Shown piece after piece: positions 1,370-29,637 of a stretch of DNA of 64,000 bases. Below the pieces are notes generated by a model that was given only the letters and a program-made list of their open reading frames with translations, made no database searches and was not told where the DNA came from. Source of the DNA: an uncultured Chromatiales bacterium (GTDB lineage: Bacteria; Pseudomonadota; Gammaproteobacteria; S012-40); contig CAYUAI010000010.1 of assembly GCA_964442745.1 (NCBI GenBank), positions 3,142 to 67,141 of the forward strand, in the 5' to 3' direction. Both the position numbers and the translations under genes were made by a program. Every line of letters begins with the position of its first letter. The first letter of the stretch is position 1.

Positions 1370-2568
1370 TCATTGCTTTGGTCGAATGTATCATGACGAC
1401 AGAATGTTGACATGTCGGCGACAGCGCTTCATTTTAACTGTTGAATATAACCTTATAAAGTAATGTAAATAATATTGATAAAATTATCAAAGATATTTTG
1501 CATAAAACGGCCCGAAAATTTTTTAGGAGCGAATTAACATGTATAATAAGTAAGCACAACGACGACTAAGTTGGAGAGGCAACGGATGGTTATTTTGTAA
1601 GCTAATTGCTTGAGAGATTATTCTGCAAATCCTTTTAAAGCTCATTGATGAAAAGCTATATTTTCCTTAGCCACGTGCTGTCAAACAAAAATTATTATCT
1701 TAAAAACATGTATTCTTGATAGCGATAGCTTTTCTAGCGTTATTGTGAAGGATTGTTATTTTTTGCTTTTCTTTGCTTATTTGATTCGTCATAATATATT
1801 CAAAATTGACCAAAAATAACAATGTGCTTAATTTGACTGAGTGGGTGACATCAATCAATCCTTAAAAATAAAACTATTTGCCGACATTTAAGGTCGAATA
1901 ATAGACTTTAACCATACGTAATAATAAAGTAAGGCTCAATGATAGATTCTAGGGTTGTGGAAAAATGGCAGGCTGAAACGGCTAATTCGGTTAAAAAACG
2001 CAATAAATAAGCCTAATTGTGTGCTAGAGCCGTAAAATATTGTTCAAATGAGCTCGTTGACTCAAGTCGTCAAATAAGACCCCGGAATCCATATTGAGCC
2101 AAAAAAAATAACCACGTATTCGTGATATCTCCTGCATTTTTATTTTTGAATCATGTGCTGACTCCCTGGGATTCACTGTCATTTATGTGTTGTTCCAATG
2201 TTTTATTTGGAGGGTTGAATGAGTAAGCGAGCGGTGGGTCCACGGGTTAATGGAACGCAGTGATCAATTGGAGTAGACCGTCAACTGGTAGGTTTGCCCC
2301 ATGCCGATTTTAACCTATATTCCGTATCAGGGTATGTCAAAATGGCGAAAAGGTTTGATTTCATGTGGATTATTCTATAAGCGTGTCACACTTGTGCATT
2401 GCTGAGCGAAGATGAATCCATATAAAATAAATGGCTAGTTGGGGTTAGATGCCTTGGGTATAAAATGTCGCTCAGAAAGATTGACGCGTGTGTTATATAT
2501 GTTAGAACAGTTCGTTTGTTAAAGTCTGCAGCATACATGATGGTTGCGGTCAAAAATGAATATCGCGT

Positions 2569-2606: not shown

Positions 2607-2675
2607 CATGATCTGCGTGCGGCTTAGCGAGTTATTTGAATTAAGTCACGATCTTGATGGGGACGAGGGTGTGGC

Positions 2676-4877
2676 ATGAGGCAGACAACGATATTTATAG
2701 TGAGTACTTTCGTATTGAGCCTAATTTTGCTCGGAGGCTGTGATCGACTCAAATCGACTAATCAGGTTCCCGTGGCAGATGCGGGCGTTGATCAAGCGGT
2801 TGCCGTGGGTGATGATGTCTATTTAAATGGCATGGGATCTGTTGACGAAGATGGGCGTATTATTCGTTTTGAATGGGAATTAATCGAAAAGCCATCGAAT
2901 AGCCTAACGATCTTATCTGATCCAACGAATGTCGCACCCATGTTTATTGCCGACACTCCTGGCACCTACATTATTCGTTTGCAGGTTTTCGATGGTGATG
3001 CACTGAGTAGCCCGGATGAAGTTCATGTGGTGACGTTAAATAGTCCACCGATGGCATTGGCTGAGCTGGTTTCAGGCGGTGGTGCACCGGGTGTGATCGC
3101 GCAACTCGATGGCAGTTTATCCTTTGATGAGGATCAGGATCCGTTAGAATATGACTGGTCTCTTATTTCCACACCACCCAATAGCCTGAGTGAAATTGAT
3201 GATCCGACAGCATCATCGGTTACTGTGACGCCTGACAAAGAAGGGGATTATGTGGTCCACTTAGTGGTGAATGACGGATTGCATTATAGTGATCCCGCCA
3301 TCATCGCCTTTTCAGCAGGAAATACTAAACCACCCATTGCTGAAGCCGGCAAAGATCAAGCCTTGTTTACTGTGGGTGTTACTCAGCTTGATGGCACGCA
3401 ATCTTACGACCCGGATGGCTCGCCGTTGAGTTATCGCTGGGATTTACTCTTTAAACCGCTCAGCAGTGAAATTTTTTTAGATGATGACGTGATTGACAAG
3501 CCTACTTTTGTATTAGACGTCAAAGCGGCTTATGTCGCCCGTTTAGTGGTGAATGATGGCAGTAGTGATAGCCATCCCGATACCGTGATTGTTGCTTATC
3601 ATCCTACGGGGCCTTTATGTCAAGATTGTCATGATAGTGAAAATGCCTCAGGAAAATCGCTAACGCATGTGACGACCTATGATGATTGTGATTTCTGTCA
3701 TAATGCAGATCGTTGGAATCCAGTGGATGGTTTTGTGCATATGGCGTCGCCAGGCGTATGTAAAAATTGTCACGATGGCAGCTCCGCCGCTGGTAAACAG
3801 GACAATCATGTGGTGACTGAGCTTGATTGTGATTGGTGTCATCGTTTAGAGGCTTGGTTACCGATAATAGAGCCCCCAACGCGTCCAGTATTTAGTCATG
3901 AGTTTATTTTAGGCGGATGTTTTTCATGTCACAGTGGTCTCATCGAGAGAGGTAAATCAGAGATTCATAGCCCTTCATCAAATCGTTGTTCGGCGTGTCA
4001 TCGGACATCGTCTTGGTTGCCCGCCGTTCATTTAGAGCATACCATTATTTTTGATGAATGCATCTTGTGCCACAATGTGGAAAATAATAATGGCAAACTC
4101 GACACTCACTTGCCAACCAGTGACGATTGTGTGCAATGTCATCATCCGTCCGGTTGGAAACCGGTGCTTCGTGTCAATCATGATTTTGTGATAGGTGAAT
4201 GCGTTGATTGCCATGATGGTGAAAAAGCTCAGGGAAAATCACTGAATCATCCAGAGACTTCTAATAAGTGTGATGCTTGTCATACAACGATTAGCTGGAG
4301 TGATCGGCTTAACCTGGTCGATCACAGTAAATTGATCAATAGTAACTGCGTGCGTTGTCATAACGGTACGCGGGCCATTGCAAAAAAACAAGGCCATTTA
4401 CCGACCACCAATAACTGTTCTGCCTGTCATGCAACCAATAGCTGGTTGCCATTGATTAAAGTTGATCATTTAAGCGTGCGCGGAAATTGCGAAAGTTGTC
4501 ATAATGGGGACGCAGCCGAAGGTAAGCCTAGCGATCATATTCGCGCCAATGATCGATGTGCGGCCTGTCATACCTCACAACAATGGTTTCCGGTGAACAA
4601 TGTCGATCATTTGGAAGTGTTAGGGGCATGCGCAGATTGCCATATACAACCGACGTCGCATATCAATACCAGCAAACAGTGTCAAACTTGTCATGATACC
4701 TCCCGTTTTTTATCGCCTGAGACGGTTGATCATAACGAGGTTTTAGGCACCTGTGTGTCGTGTCATCAACCGCATATCCCCGCCAATCATAGCGCGATAA
4801 ATGTGATTGATAAATGCAGTGATTGTCACAGCGTGATCTCTTGGCAAGACGCATTAAACCCGTTACCTAAAAATTAA
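2676..4877 (+). CDS. Multiheme cytochrome c lipoprotein with 18 CxxCH motifs and N-terminal PKD/Ig-like repeats
   Basis: The protein has a signal peptide with lipobox LLGGC. It carries three ~95 aa repeats of the form P[IV]AxAGxDQ...LDGSxSxDxDG...YxW, which are PKD-like. From about aa 309 there are 18 CxxCH motifs in nine ~45 aa modules of the form CxxCHdG..a.GK...H..(n6-8)..CxxCH...W.P. The supporting RBS is gacgagggtgtggcATG. Confidence 0.85.
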   Translation: MRQTTIFIVSTFVLSLILLGGCDRLKSTNQVPVADAGVDQAVAVGDDVYLNGMGSVDEDGRIIRFEWELIEKPSNSLTILSDPTNVAPMFIADTPGTYIIRLQVFDGDALSSPDEVHVVTLNSPPMALAELVSGGGAPGVIAQLDGSLSFDEDQDPLEYDWSLISTPPNSLSEIDDPTASSVTVTPDKEGDYVVHLVVNDGLHYSDPAIIAFSAGNTKPPIAEAGKDQALFTVGVTQLDGTQSYDPDGSPLSYRWDLLFKPLSSEIFLDDDVIDKPTFVLDVKAAYVARLVVNDGSSDSHPDTVIVAYHPTGPLCQDCHDSENASGKSLTHVTTYDDCDFCHNADRWNPVDGFVHMASPGVCKNCHDGSSAAGKQDNHVVTELDCDWCHRLEAWLPIIEPPTRPVFSHEFILGGCFSCHSGLIERGKSEIHSPSSNRCSACHRTSSWLPAVHLEHTIIFDECILCHNVENNNGKLDTHLPTSDDCVQCHHPSGWKPVLRVNHDFVIGECVDCHDGEKAQGKSLNHPETSNKCDACHTTISWSDRLNLVDHSKLINSNCVRCHNGTRAIAKKQGHLPTTNNCSACHATNSWLPLIKVDHLSVRGNCESCHNGDAAEGKPSDHIRANDRCAACHTSQQWFPVNNVDHLEVLGACADCHIQPTSHINTSKQCQTCHDTSRFLSPETVDHNEVLGTCVSCHQPHIPANHSAINVIDKCSDCHSVISWQDALNPLPKN

Positions 4878-5118
4878 AGTTAATGATTTTCCCAGAAGGG
4901 AAAGGAAATGGTTGGGTTGATGGCGTTAAATACAATTTATGGTGATGAGCTATATTCCTGAGGCATAGGAAGCTAGGGTGAGAGTAATTTTCCGGAAATT
5001 TTTTGTTGATTTCTGATCTCAGGGGTATCAAAGTGCTTTGTGAATTTCAAGTGCTAGTTTGCCTGATTCCGGCCATAACTAAAAAAATGATTGAATAATT
5101 TTAGGTGGGAGTTTAAGT

Positions 5119-7671
5119 ATGGGCCAACGTCGTTTTAAGTCCTTGCTGCGTGTTGGCTTTATTTGGCTCATCATGGCTAGTTTTTTGATGAGTTTGGGTT
5201 GCCAGCACGAGTCGGCAGAAAACCAGTTACCGATTGCTGAAGCCGGAGAAGATCAAACGGTCGCGCCGGGGAGTCAAGTGAATCTAGATGGGACAGCCTC
5301 TTCTGATATAGAAACGCCGATTCTTCGCTTTAATTGGACCATCGTGGATAAACCTAAAGGCAGTAATACCTTATTATCTGAACCCGTCGGTGCGGTTCCT
5401 TTTTTTATCGCTGACAAGGTTGGGCGTTATATTATGCAATTGGTGGTTTTTGATGGGCTCTCTTATAGCGAGGCGGATCATGTGACGATTATCGTGCAAA
5501 ATGCGTTGCCAATGGCGGTGGCTAATTTTACGAGTTCTGATGTGGGTGAGGTGGTGCAGCTTGATGCGAGTCTATCCAGCGATCTCGATGGTGAGCCACT
5601 GACGTACGAATGGTTGTTATCTTCAAAGCCACCCACCAGTCAAGCGGTCATTGTGAATAACACCTTGATACAGGCTCAGTTCATTGCGGATACGCCGGGT
5701 CAATATATTGTGCATTTGTTGGTTAATGATGGGTTTCAAAATAGTGAGCCTGCAAAGTTGATGATTGATATTGGTACGATTGGCTTGCCGCCCGTGGCAG
5801 AAGCCGGGAACGATATTGCCCTTTTTAAAGGTCGGCAGGTACGTTTAGATGGCAGCCAGTCCTTTGATCCTGATGGTGAGAGTCTCACGTACCAATGGAA
5901 ATTTTTAAAGGTACCCGTTGGCGCTTTTGTCAAGCTCGATGATGATCGCTCAGCCACGCCAACAATTGACATTAATGTGTTGGGTGGTTATGTACTTCAG
6001 TTGGTGGTGCGGGATAGCTTAGGGGTGAGCCATCCCGATACGGTATTAATCACCTATCATAAAAACCCGGATCGACCCTGTGTAGATTGCCATGATGGGC
6101 GGTCTGCCCCCGGTATGAATGAAGGACATTTGACGCTGCGTGATGACTGTGGTGTATGCCATAGGCCTGAAAACTGGAAACCGGTTAAAGGGGTACCAGT
6201 CCATTTAACCGTGCCAGAAATATGTGATAACTGTCATGTCGCAAAGGGAATTGCCACGGCTAAGTCAGCCAATCATCGGCCAACTGAAAATGATTGCAAG
6301 GATTGCCATTTCGTTGATGCATGGATACCGGCGAACATTGAACCGCGGCCCCCCTTATTTGATCATCAAGGGTTGATCAGTGGATGTAATCAGTGCCATG
6401 TTGATGCGAGCAATGGCAAACCATTAAGTCATGTGCCTTCCTCCGATTTATGCAGTGCTTGTCATTCCTCCGATCAATGGATACCTGCATTGCATTTAGA
6501 GCATACGGATGCATTTCGAGGATGTTCCATTTGTCATGACAATAATTTGGCTAAAGGAAAACCGTTACTTCACATACGAAGTTCAGCGAAATGTAACCAA
6601 TGTCATATGAAGTATCGTTTTAAGCCGGTGGCAACGGTGAACCATAGTGAAACGCAAGGGGATTGCATCAGTTGTCATGATGGAAAGCTGGCTCAAGGCA
6701 AAAGCGCACAACATCCTGAGTCTAGTAATATTTGTGATGAGTGTCATTCAGTGGTGAACTGGATGACAATTATTCGAATCCAAGCGCATGCGGGTGTCAC
6801 AGGTCAATGTGATGCGTGTCATGATGGTGCTCAAGCGCTGGGTAAGTTGGATGGACCCAAACGCTTTCACTTAGAGACTACGGCCATGTGTGAAGCTTGT
6901 CATCGCATTGTGAGCTGGTTGCCGTTGTTATCTATGGAACACCGGGAAGTGACTGGCGAGTGTCAGTCTTGTCACGTAACACCACCCGAGTTATTGCCTT
7001 CGCTTACCACGCCCGGTGAAAATCATATTGCGACCAGCGATCAATGTGGTGCGTGCCATGTGACTAATGTCTGGTTACCCACGTTTAAAGTGGCCCATAC
7101 CGAAGTGCTTGGTGATTGCATTTTATGTCATGATGGGGAAACGGCAACCGGTCGGTCAGATAATCACGTGGCGAGTAGTGAGTTATGTGGTGCGTGTCAT
7201 GCCACCAAAGAGTGGGTACCGGTGGTGGTGATGGATCATGATGAAATCACCAATCAAAGCGCTTGTGTTGAGTGTCATAATGGTACATTAGCAACAGGCC
7301 AGCCGGAGACTCATCTGCCAACCTCAACGAGTTGTAAGGCATGCCATGCAACACGAGTTTGGCAGCCCAATGTGATTGTCGATCATAATGAGGTGAGAGG
7401 GAAATGTGTTGATTGTCACAATGGGAATTTAGCGTCAGGAAAAATACGAGGGCATCAACCAACATCTGACAATTGTACTCAATGTCACATGACGTCACGT
7501 TGGACACCGGTGTTTACCGTCGATCACCAGCAAGTGCTAGGCGTATGTGTGGTCTGTCATAAGGCGCCGTTAAATCATGGGCAAGTGGGGATTCGTGACC
7601 AATGTGAAGATTGTCATATTACTCAATGGTGGGCGGAGGTTAAGCAACCATTGCCGAAAAATCAGCAATGA
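5119..7671 (+). CDS. Multiheme cytochrome c lipoprotein with 22 CxxCH motifs; paralogue of the upstream gene
   Basis: The protein has a signal peptide with lipobox SLGC and three PKD-like repeats. It then carries 22 CxxCH motifs in eleven paired modules. Its C-terminus ...QPLPKNQQ resembles the ...NPLPKN end of gene 1. Confidence 0.85.
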   Translation: MGQRRFKSLLRVGFIWLIMASFLMSLGCQHESAENQLPIAEAGEDQTVAPGSQVNLDGTASSDIETPILRFNWTIVDKPKGSNTLLSEPVGAVPFFIADKVGRYIMQLVVFDGLSYSEADHVTIIVQNALPMAVANFTSSDVGEVVQLDASLSSDLDGEPLTYEWLLSSKPPTSQAVIVNNTLIQAQFIADTPGQYIVHLLVNDGFQNSEPAKLMIDIGTIGLPPVAEAGNDIALFKGRQVRLDGSQSFDPDGESLTYQWKFLKVPVGAFVKLDDDRSATPTIDINVLGGYVLQLVVRDSLGVSHPDTVLITYHKNPDRPCVDCHDGRSAPGMNEGHLTLRDDCGVCHRPENWKPVKGVPVHLTVPEICDNCHVAKGIATAKSANHRPTENDCKDCHFVDAWIPANIEPRPPLFDHQGLISGCNQCHVDASNGKPLSHVPSSDLCSACHSSDQWIPALHLEHTDAFRGCSICHDNNLAKGKPLLHIRSSAKCNQCHMKYRFKPVATVNHSETQGDCISCHDGKLAQGKSAQHPESSNICDECHSVVNWMTIIRIQAHAGVTGQCDACHDGAQALGKLDGPKRFHLETTAMCEACHRIVSWLPLLSMEHREVTGECQSCHVTPPELLPSLTTPGENHIATSDQCGACHVTNVWLPTFKVAHTEVLGDCILCHDGETATGRSDNHVASSELCGACHATKEWVPVVVMDHDEITNQSACVECHNGTLATGQPETHLPTSTSCKACHATRVWQPNVIVDHNEVRGKCVDCHNGNLASGKIRGHQPTSDNCTQCHMTSRWTPVFTVDHQQVLGVCVVCHKAPLNHGQVGIRDQCEDCHITQWWAEVKQPLPKNQQ

Positions 7672-7744
7672 GTAAGTTATTGCGCGCTCAAGCAATGACA
7701 ATTTTACTTTATCGTTGACTCTATGATGGTTTTGCTTCACTTAG

Positions 7745-8135: not shown

Positions 8136-9047
8136 ATGTCAAATAAAGTATCCAAAATTGTTGTCGCAGTCGTTGTAAGCTTGGTGGGGGGGGCGAGTTT
8201 TTCAGCCTCTGCGGCTCCCATTGTAACGGACTGGGATTTTACCTGGGAGTCCGGTTTTACATCATGGGAACCCGCCGGGGTCACCGGTATCGGGGATAAC
8301 ACCTATTTAACGACACCTAACGATGAGTTACCGCTTTTTGCCGGAGGCATACAAGGCTTACCTTTTGCAAGTGCGGCGAGTCGCCTATCTTGGGGCGTCC
8401 CAGCACCAGCAGGATCGGGGCAAAGTTCATTATCGGTGGGGGCCGCCACTAATGGCAGTTTATCGGGGTCGGTAGCAACCGACGGTGCCGCGCAAAGTAC
8501 TGTGCAGGTCATTCATAGTAATCGACCTATTACCGGCACTTTTTTATCATCCGCTTCCCTATTTGGTGTGTTGTTTTTAGATCCAGTGTTACCTGATCCA
8601 CCGTATAGTACCGACCCGGGGACTGGGGCGTCACCGGTGCCAGCCTTGGTATTTAATTTTAATTTTGTAGAAACGCGGAATACAATACCCTGTGATGTGA
8701 GCGAAAGTTCGATGCCTTGTGATGACATCTTGATTGTCGATGTGGCCACCTCAGGTTTTGACGTGAGCGATAATAGTTTGAATCAGAATTTTAGCTATTT
8801 CGGCAATGATTACAATGCCAAATTCTTTTTAGAAGGTTTGAGTGTTCTTGAGACCAGCGCTTGTGTTGCTGGTGGGCGTGCTGCAGGTTGTATTGGCTTA
8901 ACGACAATAGAGAATCAAGAGAACGCTTTTCAGGCTAAATTACAGATCACGACACAGCAATTTGTCTCTGAGCCTGGTGTATTGGCCTTGTTTGGTATGG
9001 GTTTAGGTGGCTTGGGTTTGATGCGTCGTCGACGTCAGACGACTTGA
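8136..9047 (+). CDS. PEP-CTERM sorting-domain protein (exosortase substrate), Ser/Thr/Gly-rich secreted protein
   Basis: There is an N-terminal signal peptide (KIVVAVVVSLVGGASFSASAAP). The C-terminus VSEPGVLALFGMGLGGLGLMRRRRQTT has the PEP-CTERM layout of motif, TM helix and Arg cluster. Confidence 0.8.
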   Translation: MSNKVSKIVVAVVVSLVGGASFSASAAPIVTDWDFTWESGFTSWEPAGVTGIGDNTYLTTPNDELPLFAGGIQGLPFASAASRLSWGVPAPAGSGQSSLSVGAATNGSLSGSVATDGAAQSTVQVIHSNRPITGTFLSSASLFGVLFLDPVLPDPPYSTDPGTGASPVPALVFNFNFVETRNTIPCDVSESSMPCDDILIVDVATSGFDVSDNSLNQNFSYFGNDYNAKFFLEGLSVLETSACVAGGRAAGCIGLTTIENQENAFQAKLQITTQQFVSEPGVLALFGMGLGGLGLMRRRRQTT

Positions 9048-9835: not shown

Positions 9836-12106
9836 CTATTTCCCAGGTCGAAGTAAGCCGCCTAAACCGACTTTTTCAAGCTCATTGTTTAGCATGGCCC
9901 GAATGGATTTGGCGTCTTCCATACGGTGTGCTTGTTCGAGTAAATCACGAGCGCGTACATAGCTAATACTCCGAATAACCCATTTAATACGCGGCAGAGC
10001 GACCACATTCATACTTAAACTTCCCATGCTAATTCCCATGCCTAACAGCAAAATGACGGCGGCAGGATCCCCCGCCATTTCACCACAAATACTGACTGGA
10101 ATGTGATTAATCGAGCCACTGTCAATGACATGTTGCACGGCCATGATAACGGCCGGATGCAGGCAATCGTATAAGCTGGCGACGTTTGGGTTATTGCGAT
10201 CCACGGCTAAGAGGTATTGGACTAAGTCGTTGGTACCCACTGACATAAAATCAACCCGCTTGGCAATAAGCGGTGCTTGATAAACGGCAGAAGGCACTTC
10301 AATCATGGCGCCGATTCGAGGCATGCATATATCTTTATGCCCTTCATTAATGAGTTCATTTCTAGCGCGACGGATTAGTACGAGTGATTCATTAATCTCT
10401 GTGACACTGGATATCATGGGTAGTAGCACATTCAGATTGATTAACCCTTCGCTGGCCTTTAACATAGCGCGCAGTTGAACAAGGAAAATATCCGGATGAT
10501 CTAAACTGATTCGAATACCGCGCCAACCGAGAAAGGGATTGTCTTCTTTGATAGGAAAATAGGATAAGTTTTTGTCACCTCCAATGTCTAAGGTACGTAA
10601 GGTGACCAGGCGAGGTGAGAAGGATTGTAGCACCTGTCGATACAGTTGTGTTTGTTCTTGTTCGCTAGGGAATTGGTCTCGGATCATGAAGGGAAATTCA
10701 GTACGGTATAAGCCTATCCCTTCGGCTCCACTATTGATTGACGAGGTCGTGTCTGAAAGCAGGCCGGTGTTGACATACAAAGGAATTCTAACTTTATCCG
10801 GTGTTTCAGCGGGCTGGTCTTTCAACGCTTCGAGTCCTGCGGAAAGTTCTTGCTCTTCTTTCATCAGGCGGGTGTATTCTTTTTTAACTGTGTGAGATGG
10901 GGAGATGTATAGGCATCCCTGATAGCCATCGACCACGACGGTCAACCCGTCTAGACTGCTGGTGGGTAAATCAACGGCGCCCATGATAGTTGGTACACCT
11001 AATGCGCGGGCCAATATGGCGACATGTGAAGAGCCGGAGCCGTGGGTGCATACCACGGCGGTGAGTTGTTCAATGGGGACTTCCATTAGATTCGAGGCGG
11101 TGAGTTCATCACCGATGAGTATGGTTTTTTTAGGGTAGGTCCGAGGGCCTCGGGTTTTAGACTGCAAGTGCATTAAAATGCGGCGTCCCAGGTCTCGAAT
11201 ATCTTGAGCACGTTCACGCAAGTAGTTGTCTTCCATTTGGGAGAAGACTTTTACCTGGTCTTGAACGGTGTCACGCAGGGCGGCTGATGCCCACAAGCCT
11301 TGCTGGATGCGACTGATGGTTTTTTGAATGAGGCTATCGCTTTTTAGCATTAATAAATAGGCATCAAAAATGGCCGAATCTTCAGCGGGCAAGTGAGCGA
11401 CACGTTTTTTAATGGCTAAAATTTCTTGTTCAGTCGCTGAAATTGCATTGCGAAACGCTTGAGTTTCTCCTTCTAAATCGTCAGTGTGGCGATTGGGAAC
11501 GGCTTCTAAGTCGGCGGGCGGGTAAATAACAACCGCTTGCCCAATCGCCACGCCTGGTGCGCCGGGTAGACCCCTAAATGGCCGGTCATGACTGATGTTT
11601 TTTCCGTTGAGTTCTGCAATGCCGCCACTGGCTTCTGCATGGGCAATGGCGCCTGCTAGTTGCGCTGCCATGGTGACTAACAGGGTCACTTCATCCTCTT
11701 CAAAGCGCCGGTGTTCTTGTTGCTGTACGACTAAAACACCAAATACATTGCGGTGATGGATGATAGGTACGCCTAAAAATCCATGGTAACAATCCTCGCC
11801 AGTTTCTGGGATATATTTGTAATTTGGGTGTCGGTGTGCGTTGCGGATATTAAAGGGTTCAGTACGTTGGCTAACAAGCCCGATTAAGCCTTCAGAAGCC
11901 GCTAATCGGACATTGCCGATTGCGCTGGGGTTTAATCCATCGGTAGCGACTAAAATATTTTCTTTGGTCACCGGTGCAGTTAAATAAACAGAGCAGACAT
12001 CGGCATGCATCACCTGCTTGACACGACGTACCATCAGCGATAGTACTTGCTCGAAATTTTCTGCAGTGTTGACTTCTTGTATGATACGGCGCAGTGTTTC
12101 TAGCAC
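9836..12106 (-). CDS. ptsP: Phosphoenolpyruvate-protein phosphotransferase PtsP (EI-Ntr) with N-terminal GAF domain
   Basis: A 756 aa protein with a GAF N-terminus and a PEP-utilising enzyme core. It lies downstream of rppH, which is the conserved rppH-ptsP arrangement. Confidence 0.9.
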   Translation of the reverse strand: MLETLRRIIQEVNTAENFEQVLSLMVRRVKQVMHADVCSVYLTAPVTKENILVATDGLNPSAIGNVRLAASEGLIGLVSQRTEPFNIRNAHRHPNYKYIPETGEDCYHGFLGVPIIHHRNVFGVLVVQQQEHRRFEEDEVTLLVTMAAQLAGAIAHAEASGGIAELNGKNISHDRPFRGLPGAPGVAIGQAVVIYPPADLEAVPNRHTDDLEGETQAFRNAISATEQEILAIKKRVAHLPAEDSAIFDAYLLMLKSDSLIQKTISRIQQGLWASAALRDTVQDQVKVFSQMEDNYLRERAQDIRDLGRRILMHLQSKTRGPRTYPKKTILIGDELTASNLMEVPIEQLTAVVCTHGSGSSHVAILARALGVPTIMGAVDLPTSSLDGLTVVVDGYQGCLYISPSHTVKKEYTRLMKEEQELSAGLEALKDQPAETPDKVRIPLYVNTGLLSDTTSSINSGAEGIGLYRTEFPFMIRDQFPSEQEQTQLYRQVLQSFSPRLVTLRTLDIGGDKNLSYFPIKEDNPFLGWRGIRISLDHPDIFLVQLRAMLKASEGLINLNVLLPMISSVTEINESLVLIRRARNELINEGHKDICMPRIGAMIEVPSAVYQAPLIAKRVDFMSVGTNDLVQYLLAVDRNNPNVASLYDCLHPAVIMAVQHVIDSGSINHIPVSICGEMAGDPAAVILLLGMGISMGSLSMNVVALPRIKWVIRSISYVRARDLLEQAHRMEDAKSIRAMLNNELEKVGLGGLLRPGK

Positions 12107-12496
12107 AAGTTTTCCTGAAAGATGTAGTATTGCTTAAATAATATCATTGATTGAGAGGTGCAGCTGCACTTAGGAATGAGGGATTGATTAAAATACCCAT
12201 CGAGCCGGTCTTTTTGCCCGTCGGTTACCTCGCTCACTAGGTGCCCCACGGGACCGTGAAAACGACAAACAAAAATCCGGCGCAATATAGGTACTTTAAT
12301 TTCAGCCTCATTCCTTCACATAAATAAGCGGATTTTTCGCTTACTTAGAAGAGTCGGGTAGTATCTATACCTTCTTCAGAAAAAACCTGTGAAATCAATT
12401 TTCTTCGCGATTTTCAAGCGTCAAACTGCCCAATGTCGGAACTTAGAACGCAAAGTCTATTGCGCAAATATCATCCGTGAAACCCAGGGGTGTCGG

Positions 12497-13018
12497 TTAT
12501 ATTTTGTATGTATTTCGGCTCATGATATAGTTTTGGCCTAAAATAATCGGTGCCAATTCAGAAAGTGCACGTTGGTATACATTTCTTTTGAATGAGACGA
12601 CTTCACCTAATGGGTGCCAATAATCCACCCAACGCCAGAAATCGAATTCAGGCGCATTCGATAAGTTGAGCTGAATATATTCATCTGATTTATTTAATCG
12701 TAGCATAAACCAACGCTGTTTTTGCCCAATACAAAGAGGTTTGCAGTTGTATCGGATGAGGCGCTTGGGCAATTGATAATGTAGCCAATGTTGTGTTGAG
12801 CCAATGATACTCACATGATGTGGGCTTAAGCCGACTTCTTCTTTAAGTTCACGAAATAATGCCTGTTTTGGCGTTTCATTTTCTTTAATGCCGCCTTGCG
12901 GGAATTGCCAGGCCTCTTGGCCGACCCGACGCGCCCATAATAGTTTATCATCTTGATTACACAGAATGATGCCTACGTTTAATCTGTATCCGTTTGAGTC
13001 GATCACGAAAAAAACCAA
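12497..13018 (-). CDS. rppH: RNA pyrophosphohydrolase RppH (Nudix)
   Basis: The Nudix box is GGIKENETPKQALFRELKEEVGL. The sequence is strongly similar to E. coli RppH throughout, for example CIGQKQRWF and VVSFKRNVY. The true start may be the internal V/M at ...VIDSNGY. Confidence 0.9.
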   Translation of the reverse strand: MVFFVIDSNGYRLNVGIILCNQDDKLLWARRVGQEAWQFPQGGIKENETPKQALFRELKEEVGLSPHHVSIIGSTQHWLHYQLPKRLIRYNCKPLCIGQKQRWFMLRLNKSDEYIQLNLSNAPEFDFWRWVDYWHPLGEVVSFKRNVYQRALSELAPIILGQNYIMSRNTYKI

Positions 13019-13334
13019 TCATTGATAATTGAACTTAAAAACACCCTTAGCCGCTCATTTTTCGTGTCCGCGTTTGCTTATCTCAGCCTGAGTGGCGGTA
13101 TTGAAACCATGAATTCATCTTTCTCAGAATATGGCTAACCCAACATTTCTTTCGTTTATTGTTCCACAAGTACACGGTCTGTCGCAAATTTTCCGTAAAT
13201 ACTTATGTATATAATGAGTTTTAATGGGGTTGAAACGTAATGATTTACGATCGCCCTTGCTATAAGATTAGTCGATAAAGGGGTTTGGCGAGCGGAGGTG
13301 AGAACAATGCTTAACCTTTTTTCCTCATGGATAC

Positions 13335-27477: not shown

Positions 27478-28440
27478 ATGCGTGCCACTTTACCTTTATT
27501 AGAGGTTTCGGATTTTCCGGAGCTGCGTCGAGATACTTTGACAACGTTGCAAGTTAACTTGGGGTATCGATGTAATCAGCAATGTGTGCACTGTCATGTC
27601 AGTGCGGGTCCTAAGCGCAAAGAGAATATGACCTTAGAAACGGTGCAGCAAATTATCGAATTTATGCGCCAATCAAGTGTGACAAGCATCGACTTAACCG
27701 GTGGGGCACCGGAGCTTAATCCCCACTTCCGTGATTTGGTTGATGCCGCCGTCGCAAGCGATATCAATGTGATGGACCGCTGTAATATTACCGTGCTGGA
27801 AGAGCCGGGCCAGGAAAGCTTGGCAAATTACTTAGCGGATCGCAAAGTAGAAATTACCGCCTCACTACCTTGTTATATGGAAGACAATGTTGATCAGCAG
27901 CGAGGAAAGGGGGTTTTTCAAAGTAGTATTCGTGGTTTACAAGCATTAAATGCGTTGGGTTATGGTCAGCCAAATAGTGGTTTACGACTCAATTTGGTTT
28001 ATAATCCGCAAGGTTGGGTTTTGCCTCCGGCTCAAGCTGAGCTTGAAGCTGACTATAAAAAACATTTACAACAACACTTTGGTATTGTGTTTAACCAGTT
28101 GTATACCATCACCAATATGCCCATCCAGCGCTTTGGAAGCATGTTGGTCTCCAAGGGGAAATTCCATCATTACATGTCATTACTCAAAACATCGTATGCA
28201 AAGGTTAATTTGCCGACGGTTATGTGTCGTCGCTTAATCAGTGTAGATTGGCAGGGTTATGTCTATGATTGCGATTTTAATCAAATGCTAGATTTGCCAC
28301 TGAGAATGGAAAATCGGCCTAAAGCACATATCAATGACTTGCTAAAATATGATTTAAATGGCAATCCCATTGTGGTGGCAGATCATTGTTACGGATGTAC
28401 GGCGGGCAGTGGCAGTAGTTGTGGTGGCGCATTATCATAA
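27478..28440 (+). CDS. arsS: Arsenosugar-biosynthesis-type radical SAM protein ArsS (TIGR04167-like)
   Basis: The radical SAM motif is CNQQCVHCH. The strings LTGGAPELNP, DRCNITVL, LNLVYNPQG, TNMPIQRFG and VDWQGYVYDCDFNQML match the ArsS family as I recall it. Confidence 0.75.
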   Translation: MRATLPLLEVSDFPELRRDTLTTLQVNLGYRCNQQCVHCHVSAGPKRKENMTLETVQQIIEFMRQSSVTSIDLTGGAPELNPHFRDLVDAAVASDINVMDRCNITVLEEPGQESLANYLADRKVEITASLPCYMEDNVDQQRGKGVFQSSIRGLQALNALGYGQPNSGLRLNLVYNPQGWVLPPAQAELEADYKKHLQQHFGIVFNQLYTITNMPIQRFGSMLVSKGKFHHYMSLLKTSYAKVNLPTVMCRRLISVDWQGYVYDCDFNQMLDLPLRMENRPKAHINDLLKYDLNGNPIVVADHCYGCTAGSGSSCGGALS

Positions 28441-28512: not shown

Positions 28513-29637
28513 GTGGATTTAAATGCGAGTGTATTAGATCGCTATTCTGGCGGTGCCAAAGAGCGTCAAGAATTATTATGTTGCCCTGTTGGCTATGATA
28601 GCGAGGCGTTAGCCCTGCTTCCCCAAGAAATTATCGATAAAGACTATGGCTGTGGTGATCCATCACGTTATGTGCGTCCAGGCGATACGGTGCTTGATCT
28701 TGGTAGTGGCGGTGGTAAAATTTGTTATATGGCCGCGAGTATTGTGGGTCAAGAAGGTAAGGTGATTGGCGTTGATATGAATGATGACATGTTAATGCTT
28801 GCAAGAAAATATCAACAAGAAATGGCGGATAAGTTAGGGAGCGATCGTGTCGCGTTTGTAAAAGGGTATATTCAGGATTTGGCGCTGGATGTGACGGCCA
28901 TGGAACAAAGGCTTGCCGATCATCCCGTTAAAAATGCAAAAGATTATTCGGCATTAGGTGACTATCAAGCGCGTCAACGACAAAACAATCCTCTCATTAA
29001 AGACAATTCGATTGATTTAGTGATTTCCAACTGTGTACTTAATCTGGTGAGCGATTCGGAAAAAACTCAGCTTGTCCACGAAATATTTCGTGTCTTAAAG
29101 CCCGGTGGTCGAGTGGCAATTTCTGATATCGTGAGCGATGAGTTTGTCCCCGATACACTTAAAAATGATCCAGAACTATGGAGTGGCTGTATTTCTGGCG
29201 CGTTTCAAGAGCATGAGTTGATGGAGGCCTTTGTTGACGCGGGATTTGTTGCCGTGTGTTTTGATAAATGGGAGGAAACGCCTTGGCAAGTGGTTGAGGG
29301 GCTCGAATTTCGTTCGGTGACTTTGACGGCGGTGAAGGGTGAAGGTAATGATTGTATTGATCGAGGTCATGCGGTTATTTACAAAGGTCCTTACGCTAAT
29401 GTCCATGACGAAGAAGGCCACATTTTTCCGCGAGGCGAACGAATTGCGGTATGTGAAAGAACCTTTGGTATGTTAACGCAAGGCCCTTATAAAGATGATT
29501 TTATTGGTATTGCGCCCGCCACTTTGTGGGAACCCAGACACTGGTGTGCGCCAGCGGGCACGTTGCGACCGGCCTCTCAAACAAAGGGGGCTAGCTATCA
29601 AATATCCGATGAATCATCTGTCGGCACTTGTTGCTAA
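28513..29637 (+). CDS. arsM: ArsM-like arsenite S-adenosylmethionine methyltransferase
   Basis: The class I SAM motif is VLDLGSGGG. The N-terminal Cys pair is LLCCPVGYD. A long Cys-containing C-terminal domain follows. The gene sits next to arsS. Confidence 0.7.
   Translation: MDLNASVLDRYSGGAKERQELLCCPVGYDSEALALLPQEIIDKDYGCGDPSRYVRPGDTVLDLGSGGGKICYMAASIVGQEGKVIGVDMNDDMLMLARKYQQEMADKLGSDRVAFVKGYIQDLALDVTAMEQRLADHPVKNAKDYSALGDYQARQRQNNPLIKDNSIDLVISNCVLNLVSDSEKTQLVHEIFRVLKPGGRVAISDIVSDEFVPDTLKNDPELWSGCISGAFQEHELMEAFVDAGFVAVCFDKWEETPWQVVEGLEFRSVTLTAVKGEGNDCIDRGHAVIYKGPYANVHDEEGHIFPRGERIAVCERTFGMLTQGPYKDDFIGIAPATLWEPRHWCAPAGTLRPASQTKGASYQISDESSVGTCC

Follow-up and report, generated by a model that had tools for sequence, protein, structure and literature searches.

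Two adjacent genes, here termed A and B, occupy the forward strand near the start of a 64 kb stretch of contig CAYUAI010000010.1 from an uncultured Chromatiales bacterium (this whole stretch, 64,000 nucleotides (nt) long, is called the window below), and each encodes a putative lipoprotein in which three PKD domains are followed by a long array of heme c sites. The features of the two genes, in window positions and with the evidence for each in brackets, are as follows.

2676..4877, + strand: gene A, a lipoprotein precursor of 733 amino acids (aa) with three PKD domains and 18 heme c sites (open reading frame (ORF), motif count, Pfam)
2676..2741, + strand: signal peptide of A with lipobox LLGG-C22 and Asp at +2 (CDRL) (read from sequence)
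2766..3602, + strand: three PKD/immunoglobulin (Ig)-like domains of A, aa 31-309 (Pfam K319L-like_PKD in 3 stretches, 98.2 bits; repeat alignment)
3594..4874, + strand: heme domain of A, aa 307-733, nine di-heme modules with an NPLPKN end (motif spacing)
5119..7671, + strand: gene B, a lipoprotein precursor of 850 aa with 22 heme c sites behind three PKD domains (ORF, motif count, Pfam)
5119..5202, + strand: signal peptide of B with lipobox MSLG-C28 and Gln at +2 (CQHE) (read from sequence)
5227..6063, + strand: three PKD/Ig-like domains of B, aa 37-315 (Pfam, AlphaFold2, Foldseek)
6055..7668, + strand: heme domain of B, aa 313-850, eleven di-heme modules with a QPLPKNQQ end (motif spacing, segment model)

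An initial annotation of the window had already proposed the ORF coordinates, heme numbers, lipoprotein signals, three PKD domains and paired-CxxCH modules, and our ORF, motif and Pfam data confirmed all of these.

Architecture and conservation of A and B

Evaluating the heme-binding motifs, we counted 18 CxxCH in A and 22 in B and no variant motifs (CxxxCH, CxxxxCH or CxxCK) in either protein. The cysteines were fully accounted for by these motifs and the lipidation sites (37 in A, 36 motif and 1 lipobox; 45 in B, 44 motif and 1 lipobox), such that each Cys of the mature proteins lies inside a CxxCH. Spacing between motifs alternates at about 23/24 residues and divides the heme domains into 9 (A) and 11 (B) modules of 41-54 aa (~47 aa) with the consensus H-x7-CxxCH-(d/n)G-x3-A-xGK-x3-H-x7-CxxCH-x4-W-xP. 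The heme domains hold 21 non-motif His for the 18 hemes of A and 23 for the 22 of B, and almost no Met. Across an alignment of 148 five-module family segments, ten CxxCH and exactly ten non-motif His were at least 90% conserved, and this one conserved non-motif His per heme, together with the scarcity of Met, argues for all-bis-His low-spin electron-transfer hemes with no obvious catalytic site. With 23.7 (A) and 24.5 (B) aa per heme, the heme domains are denser (~24) than MtrA (~33), and a low aa-per-heme ratio has been argued to be a feature of wires (both PMC5566968).

N-terminal to the heme domains, we assessed the repeats against PF22352, PF18911 and PF00801, calling a PKD domain where the score exceeded the Pfam gathering cut-off and the predicted fold was a beta-sandwich, and found 98.2 (A) and 97.7 (B) bits against a cut-off of 27, in 3 stretches each. 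AlphaFold2 modelled the three PKD beta-sandwiches at a predicted local distance difference test score (pLDDT) above 90, and Foldseek matched the PKD rods to tandem Ig, cadherin and GhpA rods, with the full-length model matching Ig-like rods only. A model of the last ten hemes of B (aa 600-850) formed a regular repeat (pLDDT 82.6; predicted TM-score 0.63). The lipobox pattern [LVI..][ASTG..][GAS]-C is matched, on sequence alone, by both A (LLGG-C22) and B (MSLG-C28).

The two proteins end in ALNPLPKN (A) and VKQPLPKNQQ (B), in agreement with the common (N/Q)PLPKN C-terminus that had been noticed at the outset, and share 38% identity over their full lengths, from which we judge them to be diverged paralogues. 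That they are not recent duplicates had likewise been proposed and holds up well, since the same gene pair lies in the same order on two independent metagenome contigs (L001, from JGI 3300005753, and L014, Ga0316206_1000077), and orthologues of both genes on both contigs place the duplication before the split of the three organisms. The A orthologues possess 18 CxxCH each and CDRL in all three organisms, the B orthologues (85% identity for P0001 on L001, 90% on L014) 22 CxxCH each, and the lipobox sequences are identical. Ratios of nonsynonymous to synonymous substitution (dN/dS) among the orthologues range from 0.105 to 0.122 (A ~0.12, B ~0.11), and both genes are under purifying selection.

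Proteins this repetitive invite the explanation that the genes are assembly artefacts or decaying repeat genes, to which we assign a negligible probability. Repeats in the DNA of A and B are no longer than 62 nt, and the copies of a repeat family share 60-73% identity (single repeat pairs have a 20-28 nt core of up to 89-90% identity), and Tandem Repeats Finder reported no tandem array in either gene. Because these repeats are short and diverged and form no array, nothing within A or B could collapse in assembly, and the two independent contigs carry the same heme counts, which sets aside the concern, raised with the initial annotation, that the CxxCH periodicity might reflect a mis-assembled repeat. 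Assembly collapse is ruled out by the repeat analysis and pseudogenes by dN/dS of ~0.11.

Relation to PCC3 and other cytochrome families

Searches with the full-length proteins returned mostly PKD-only proteins along with a small set of full-length relatives possessing 28-34 hemes and lipoboxes, and a profile search with the heme domain only returned at least 850 relatives, including P0310 and P0286. Searching 1.84 billion representatives, we found 1,616 clusters at E <=1e-3, 960 at <=1e-10 and 372 at <=1e-30, and a scan of 185,579 GTDB species genomes with clade-specific patterns gave just two weak relatives. P0310 and P0286 (from a Nitrosomonadales metagenome-assembled genome (MAG) and an Oxalobacteraceae genome) lie inside four-gene clusters (loci L010 and L011) of the PCC3 type. 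The definition of this porin-cytochrome cluster goes back to He et al. 2017 (PMC5566968), and a survey was made by Hoover et al. 2023 (PMC9900912). L010 and L011 each encode a ~300 aa inner-membrane protein (two WxxxHx13H), a periplasmic 21-/24-heme cytochrome, a 33-/32-heme multiheme cytochrome (MHC) and a 750-870 aa outer-membrane porin. A and B share ~31% identity with the 32-/33-heme MHCs (L010_10001, L011_10001; BLASTP E 1e-51 to 1e-61) and 21-24% with the periplasmic PCC3 MHCs (E 1e-11 to 1e-14), whose three-heme repeat with 17/18/32 spacing is unlike that of A and B. A metagenome scan added 75 further loci, with relatives placed within PCC3 clusters in at least 13 cases.

Among the features by which PCC3 extracellular MHCs are recognized, we found homology and the low aa-per-heme ratio with internal repeats in A and B, and no placement within a PCC3 gene cluster. 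On this similarity, we class the heme domain of A and B as a member of the PCC3 “extracellular MHC” family, whose proteins are predicted to be long and linear (PMC9900912). The initial annotation had put the two genes forward as an undescribed system, which is overstated given heme domains ~31% identical to a kind of MHC described in 2017 and 2023; it stands to the extent that no family of known function contains them, PCC3 being still “functionally unverified” (PMC12442390), and the homology searches accordingly place neither protein in an already characterised cytochrome family. A and B are a PKD-stalked, lipid-anchored and separately encoded variant of a bioinformatics-only family, and no categorically new system. 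The PCC3 papers mention neither lipidation nor PKD domains (PMC5566968, PMC9900912), and our literature search found no publication on PKD-fused or lipidated forms, nor on PKD combined with CXXCH or multiheme proteins. As a side observation on heme number, two relatives, P0351 (3592 aa) and P0349 (3274 aa), possess 131 and 129 CxxCH, well over the maximum of 85 cited in He et al. 2017 (PMC5566968).

The doubled-CXXCH model PF09699 scored 26.4 (A) and 47.3 (B) bits against a cut-off of 20.6, and Pfam Cytochrome_C7 and Paired_CXXCH_1 were above cut-off in A and B, with matches to Cytochrome_C7, c3_2 and Paired_CXXCH_1 repeated. TIGR01905 gave 12.8 bits for B against 25.2 and no match for A, TIGR03507 (OmcA/MtrC) 17.8 bits for A and no match for B (cut-off 209.3), TIGR03508 (DmsE/MtrA) 66.2 (A) and 79.8 (B) bits (cut-off 192.2), NF041028 (GSU2203) 41.9 and 83.4 bits against 325, and TIGR04257 (c7 nanowire triheme) 23.3 against 40, and the NCBIfam models for HmcA and NrfH were well below cut-off. 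Pfam Mtrc-MtrF_II-IV matched B at 41.8 bits, and the best solved relatives by sequence were MtrC pentaheme domain II (E 6.5e-10) and MtrA chain 6r2q_A (E 2.4e-8). Membership of the MtrC/OmcA, MtrA/DmsE and GSU2203 families was rejected on these scores. The likeness to the doubled-CXXCH domain of Geobacter and Shewanella cytochromes that had been pointed out early on therefore holds for the generic heme-repeat domains of Pfam and fails for the NCBIfam family models, that for paired_CXXCH included. Judged from these matches, A and B probably work like Mtr-type wires while lying outside the Mtr families.

We also assessed how widely the PKD domain and the lipobox are fused to this heme module. 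At least one PKD-like domain was found in 40 of 125 unbiased family representatives, with three or more in 5 of the 125; among all 248 family members sampled, PKD was found in 105, and a lipobox in 88 of those 105. The three-PKD clade comprises window A and B and proteins of L001, L014, L002/L003, L005, L006, L007, L056 and L075. On the 586 kb contig of L002/L003 (10001-23468), four tandem PKD-lipoprotein paralogues with 34, 32, 14 and at least 19 hemes lie downstream of gltBD-hemE, and a fifth ORF there has 19 hemes and is without PKD. In the 5.47 Mb genome of L013, a 36-heme single-PKD lipoprotein (10001-13213, +) lies 5 kb from a PCC3 cluster whose “extracellular” slot beside the porin is taken up by just a small protein (244 aa, 9 hemes) composed of the same modules (1814-2548, -). 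This arrangement suggests that a core conduit can be extended by large lipoprotein wires as accessories.

The C-terminal W-x2-P-x2-PLP end (window 4851-4874 in A, 7639-7668 in B) proved to be a family feature, present also in L015, L020, L027, L030-L032, L036, L049, L057 and L070. It occurs in the cluster-encoded MHCs of L015 (...TTAWNNPTLPLPGG) and L032 as well as in many orphan cytochromes with 38-69 hemes, many of them with 66-69. A role in docking or sorting is possible.

Neighbouring genes and non-coding blocks

Upstream of A lies a divergent FIST-domain gene (218-1369, -), and downstream of B a gene for a PEP-CTERM protein (8136-9047, +) opens a run of DUF480, PtsP, RppH, HAD hydrolase, M23 peptidase, GuaB and GuaA genes, after which come flagellar and sugar-modification genes. 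PtsP (9836-12106) is 94% identical to a JGI protein, its best matches from “Gammaproteobacteria bacterium” MAGs reach at most 70%, and PtsP of a Solemya gill symbiont, Kaarinaea lacus and Thiohalophilus share ~59-61% identity with it. Relatives of the locus possess an additional PAS-GAF-GGDEF-EAL gene upstream (L014:1396-4197, -), and in one of them an inserted GAF-HD gene lies downstream (L014:11638-12837, +). The FIST, PEP-CTERM, PAS-GAF-GGDEF-EAL and GAF-HD neighbours look related to cyclic di-GMP (c-di-GMP), biofilm or exopolysaccharide.

No other multiheme c-type cytochromes were found in the window, where an incidental CxxCH-type motif occurs once in each of three further ORFs, among them that of a radical-SAM protein. 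A radical SAM protein with C-terminal DUF3641 (27478-28440) adjoins an ORF at 28513-29637. In a phmmer comparison covering all ORFs of at least 80 aa, neither the window nor L001 or L014 yielded a match to any of the three PCC3 partners (porin, periplasmic cytochrome and inner-membrane protein). The neighbours scanned included no ccm genes either, and both results bear out the early remark that porin and other partner genes are missing nearby.

Three non-coding features lie around the two genes.

2607..2675, + strand: almost invariant 69 nt leader abutting the ATG of A (three-way DNA alignment with L001 and L014)
1750..1924, no strand assigned: almost invariant non-coding block, lying in the 1.3 kb that separate A from the FIST gene (three-way alignment)
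7676..7699, + strand: terminator-like hairpin and T-run directly 3' of B (consensus scan; such sites are no commoner than in shuffled sequence)

Proteins flanking both invariant blocks are just 85-94% identical among the window, L001 and L014. Promoter and terminator scans around the locus did not rise above shuffled sequence, and Rfam gave no match around the locus, both invariant blocks included. These blocks upstream of A may represent a promoter, leader or small RNA, and the one at 1750-1924 may be unconnected to the cytochrome genes. An insertion of ~176 nt (1925 to ~2103), unique to the window and absent from L001 and L014, splits the conserved upstream region.

Candidate roles and comparison with known systems

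To bring these observations together, we favour the explanation, at a probability of about 0.6, that A and B belong to the PCC3-type giant repeat cytochromes, carry a lipid anchor and an Ig-like stalk, and serve as surface heme wires extending a separately encoded conduit. The precursors would be exported by Sec, lipidated at Cys22 (A) and Cys28 (B), and furnished with heme by a maturation system encoded elsewhere, such that in the mature protein a lipid anchor at the N-terminus would be followed by a three-PKD beta-sandwich rod of ~10 nm and a chain of 18 or 22 bis-His hemes in close packing. Scaled from the published dimension of decaheme MtrA (~8 nm), and assuming MtrA-like spacing, the heme chain would measure an estimated ~14-18 nm. 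Electrons would hop from heme to heme and reach far beyond a decaheme, with the PKD rod acting as spacer or adhesin. The most likely site would be the outer face of the outer membrane, where the wires would lengthen a conduit through the outer membrane, encoded separately and of PCC3 or another type, toward insoluble or distant donors or acceptors, and the C-terminal W-x2-P-x2-PLP end would be a candidate docking point. What the data show is the architecture, the homology, the conserved pattern of His ligands and the purifying selection; that the proteins carry heme and act as wires, that they sit on the surface, what they partner with and which way electrons flow are matters that we infer.

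We favour the outer surface on account of the homology to predicted extracellular PCC3 MHCs, the PKD stalk and the precedent of MtrC and OmcA, which are lipoproteins and yet exposed on the surface. The heme array at the envelope or surface that the initial annotation proposed is a reasonable reading, with its location standing as a prediction. Separately encoded wires are supported by the L013 arrangement and by the PLP motif common to the cluster-encoded MHCs of L015 and L032.

Several observations weigh against surface wires of a PCC3-type conduit. A lipoprotein of a Gram-negative cell faces the periplasm by default, the surface exposure of A and B is a prediction, and PCC3 MHCs are themselves “extracellular” by prediction. 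Gene A encodes Asp at +2 (Cys22-Asp-Arg, window 2739-2747), a residue kept in three orthologues and known from E. coli to hold lipoproteins back at the inner membrane, and B has Gln at this position; from these residues, the two paralogues may sit in different membranes. No member of the three-PKD clade has a PCC3 partner at a distance of up to 10 kb, which leaves a PCC3 partnership unsupported for that clade; no alternative conserved partner gene is visible there either, and the neighbours differ between lineages. Across members with adequate flanks, 17 of 26 without PKD and 12 of 13 with PKD were partnerless (9/26 and 1/13 with partners; p = 0.12, loci not independent), so that an association of PKD with orphan status is a mere trend and not significant. 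Lastly, the regular model of the heme segment matched no solved structure in the PDB, a miss that is uninformative as the model is heme-less and coil-rich.

Placing the proteins in the periplasm, we consider it rather unlikely that A on the inner membrane and/or B on the inner leaflet of the outer membrane form wires or capacitors, which, spaced by the PKD rods, would bridge or buffer electrons across the periplasm and so link inner-membrane quinol oxidoreductases to a conduit in the outer membrane. The default orientation of the lipid anchor and the +2 residues (CDRL in 3/3 A orthologues, Gln in B) fit such a placement, the estimated heme chain is about as long as the periplasm is wide, no porin or secretion genes are adjacent, and periplasmic MHCs of PCC3 have already been proposed to span this compartment (PMC9900912). 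The heme module, however, resembles the predicted extracellular MHC of PCC3 and not the periplasmic one, and tandem PKD rods are typical of secreted or surface proteins (Foldseek; names of the PKD-only matches). The +2 rule is also species-specific, and MtrC and OmcA show that a lipid anchor need not keep a cytochrome from the surface. A related arrangement, which we hold to be a long shot, is a porin-independent lipid-tethered branch, in which A on the inner membrane and B on the outer membrane would meet in the periplasm or line the surface as a conduit or sheath without a porin partner; if true, it would be a different build of long-range electron path, made of membrane-tethered heme rods on Ig-like stalks.

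Orphan status can also be read as a stand-alone redox network of the matrix or surface without a PCC3 partner, a conductive or storage layer on the cell or its exopolysaccharide fed by another conduit or by shuttles, which we regard as improbable. Most sampled family members are orphans, relatives occur in tandem arrays of 4-5 paralogues (L002/L003), and the neighbours of close relatives include PEP-CTERM (exopolysaccharide-associated) genes and FIST, PAS-GAF-GGDEF-EAL and HD-GYP-like genes of c-di-GMP signalling; these neighbours are, however, conserved just among very close relatives, for which plain synteny is a possible reason, and electrons would still need a route across the outer membrane. 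Far less probable again is a catalytic enzyme (for example one that reduces or oxidises N, S or metal species). NrfA, HAO and the octaheme reductases are multiheme enzymes, and A and B matched NrfH, HmcA and cytochrome c554 weakly, below threshold, but the enzyme-family models were far under cut-off, and the proteins show canonical CxxCH throughout with a conserved sixth-ligand His per heme, no CxxCK, no added catalytic domain and a strictly repetitive module.

PCC3-type giant repeat cytochromes are widespread in iron- and sulfur-cycling Proteobacteria and have been proposed as long-range electron wires; to our knowledge, none has been purified, localised or genetically tested. Seeing that about one third of the family carries Ig-like stalks, mostly with a lipid anchor, and that most sampled members are encoded apart from a porin partner, PCC3 systems may be better modelled as detachable or tethered extensions than as fixed subunits, which has consequences wherever PCC3-type genes serve to mark extracellular electron transfer in metagenomic data. 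Few complete family members are smaller than A and B, which makes the two also practical for heterologous expression and structure work.

Set beside known systems, A and B resemble MtrA/DmsE and the Geobacter c7-type proteins (GSU1996, GSU2203) in their dense bis-His heme chains acting as wires, and differ in a unit of two hemes per ~47 aa as against c7 triheme units and in the PKD domains and lipid anchor that MtrA/DmsE and GSU1996/GSU2203 are without. With MtrC/OmcA of Shewanella they share the combination of beta-sandwich and multiheme domains in a lipoprotein cytochrome, at weak sequence similarity, but they possess 9 or 11 di-heme modules in linear order instead of a staggered-cross decaheme, their PKD domains are N-terminal and not interleaved, and no mtrAB-like genes are adjacent. 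Closer is a clade of 36-heme single-PKD 'GCGGG' lipoproteins from uncultured and cultured Gammaproteobacteria (for example P0062 and P0270, a 'cytochrome c3 family protein' of Kaarinaea lacus), which has the lipobox, an N-terminal PKD and the same heme module, and is set apart by its one PKD, ~36 hemes, a C-terminus of GSGCHRVS..F/W and just 26-32% identity to B. The L013 lipoprotein encoded 5 kb away from a PCC3 cluster belongs to this clade. The PCC3 extracellular MHCs differ from A and B in that the cluster-encoded ones sampled possess no PKD and no convincing lipobox, where A and B have a lipobox and three N-terminal PKD domains, and in that A and B have no PCC3 partner gene within the 64 kb window. 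Common to both are the di-heme module (CxxCH-nG-x3-A-xGK-x3-H-x7-CxxCH-...-DH), alternating 23-29 residue spacing at ~24 aa per heme, the predicted role as a long electron wire and, in some cluster-encoded MHCs, the C-terminal W..P..PLP motif, with the 18 and 22 hemes of A and B falling at the low end of a family that ranges from 9 to 131 among the MHCs sampled.

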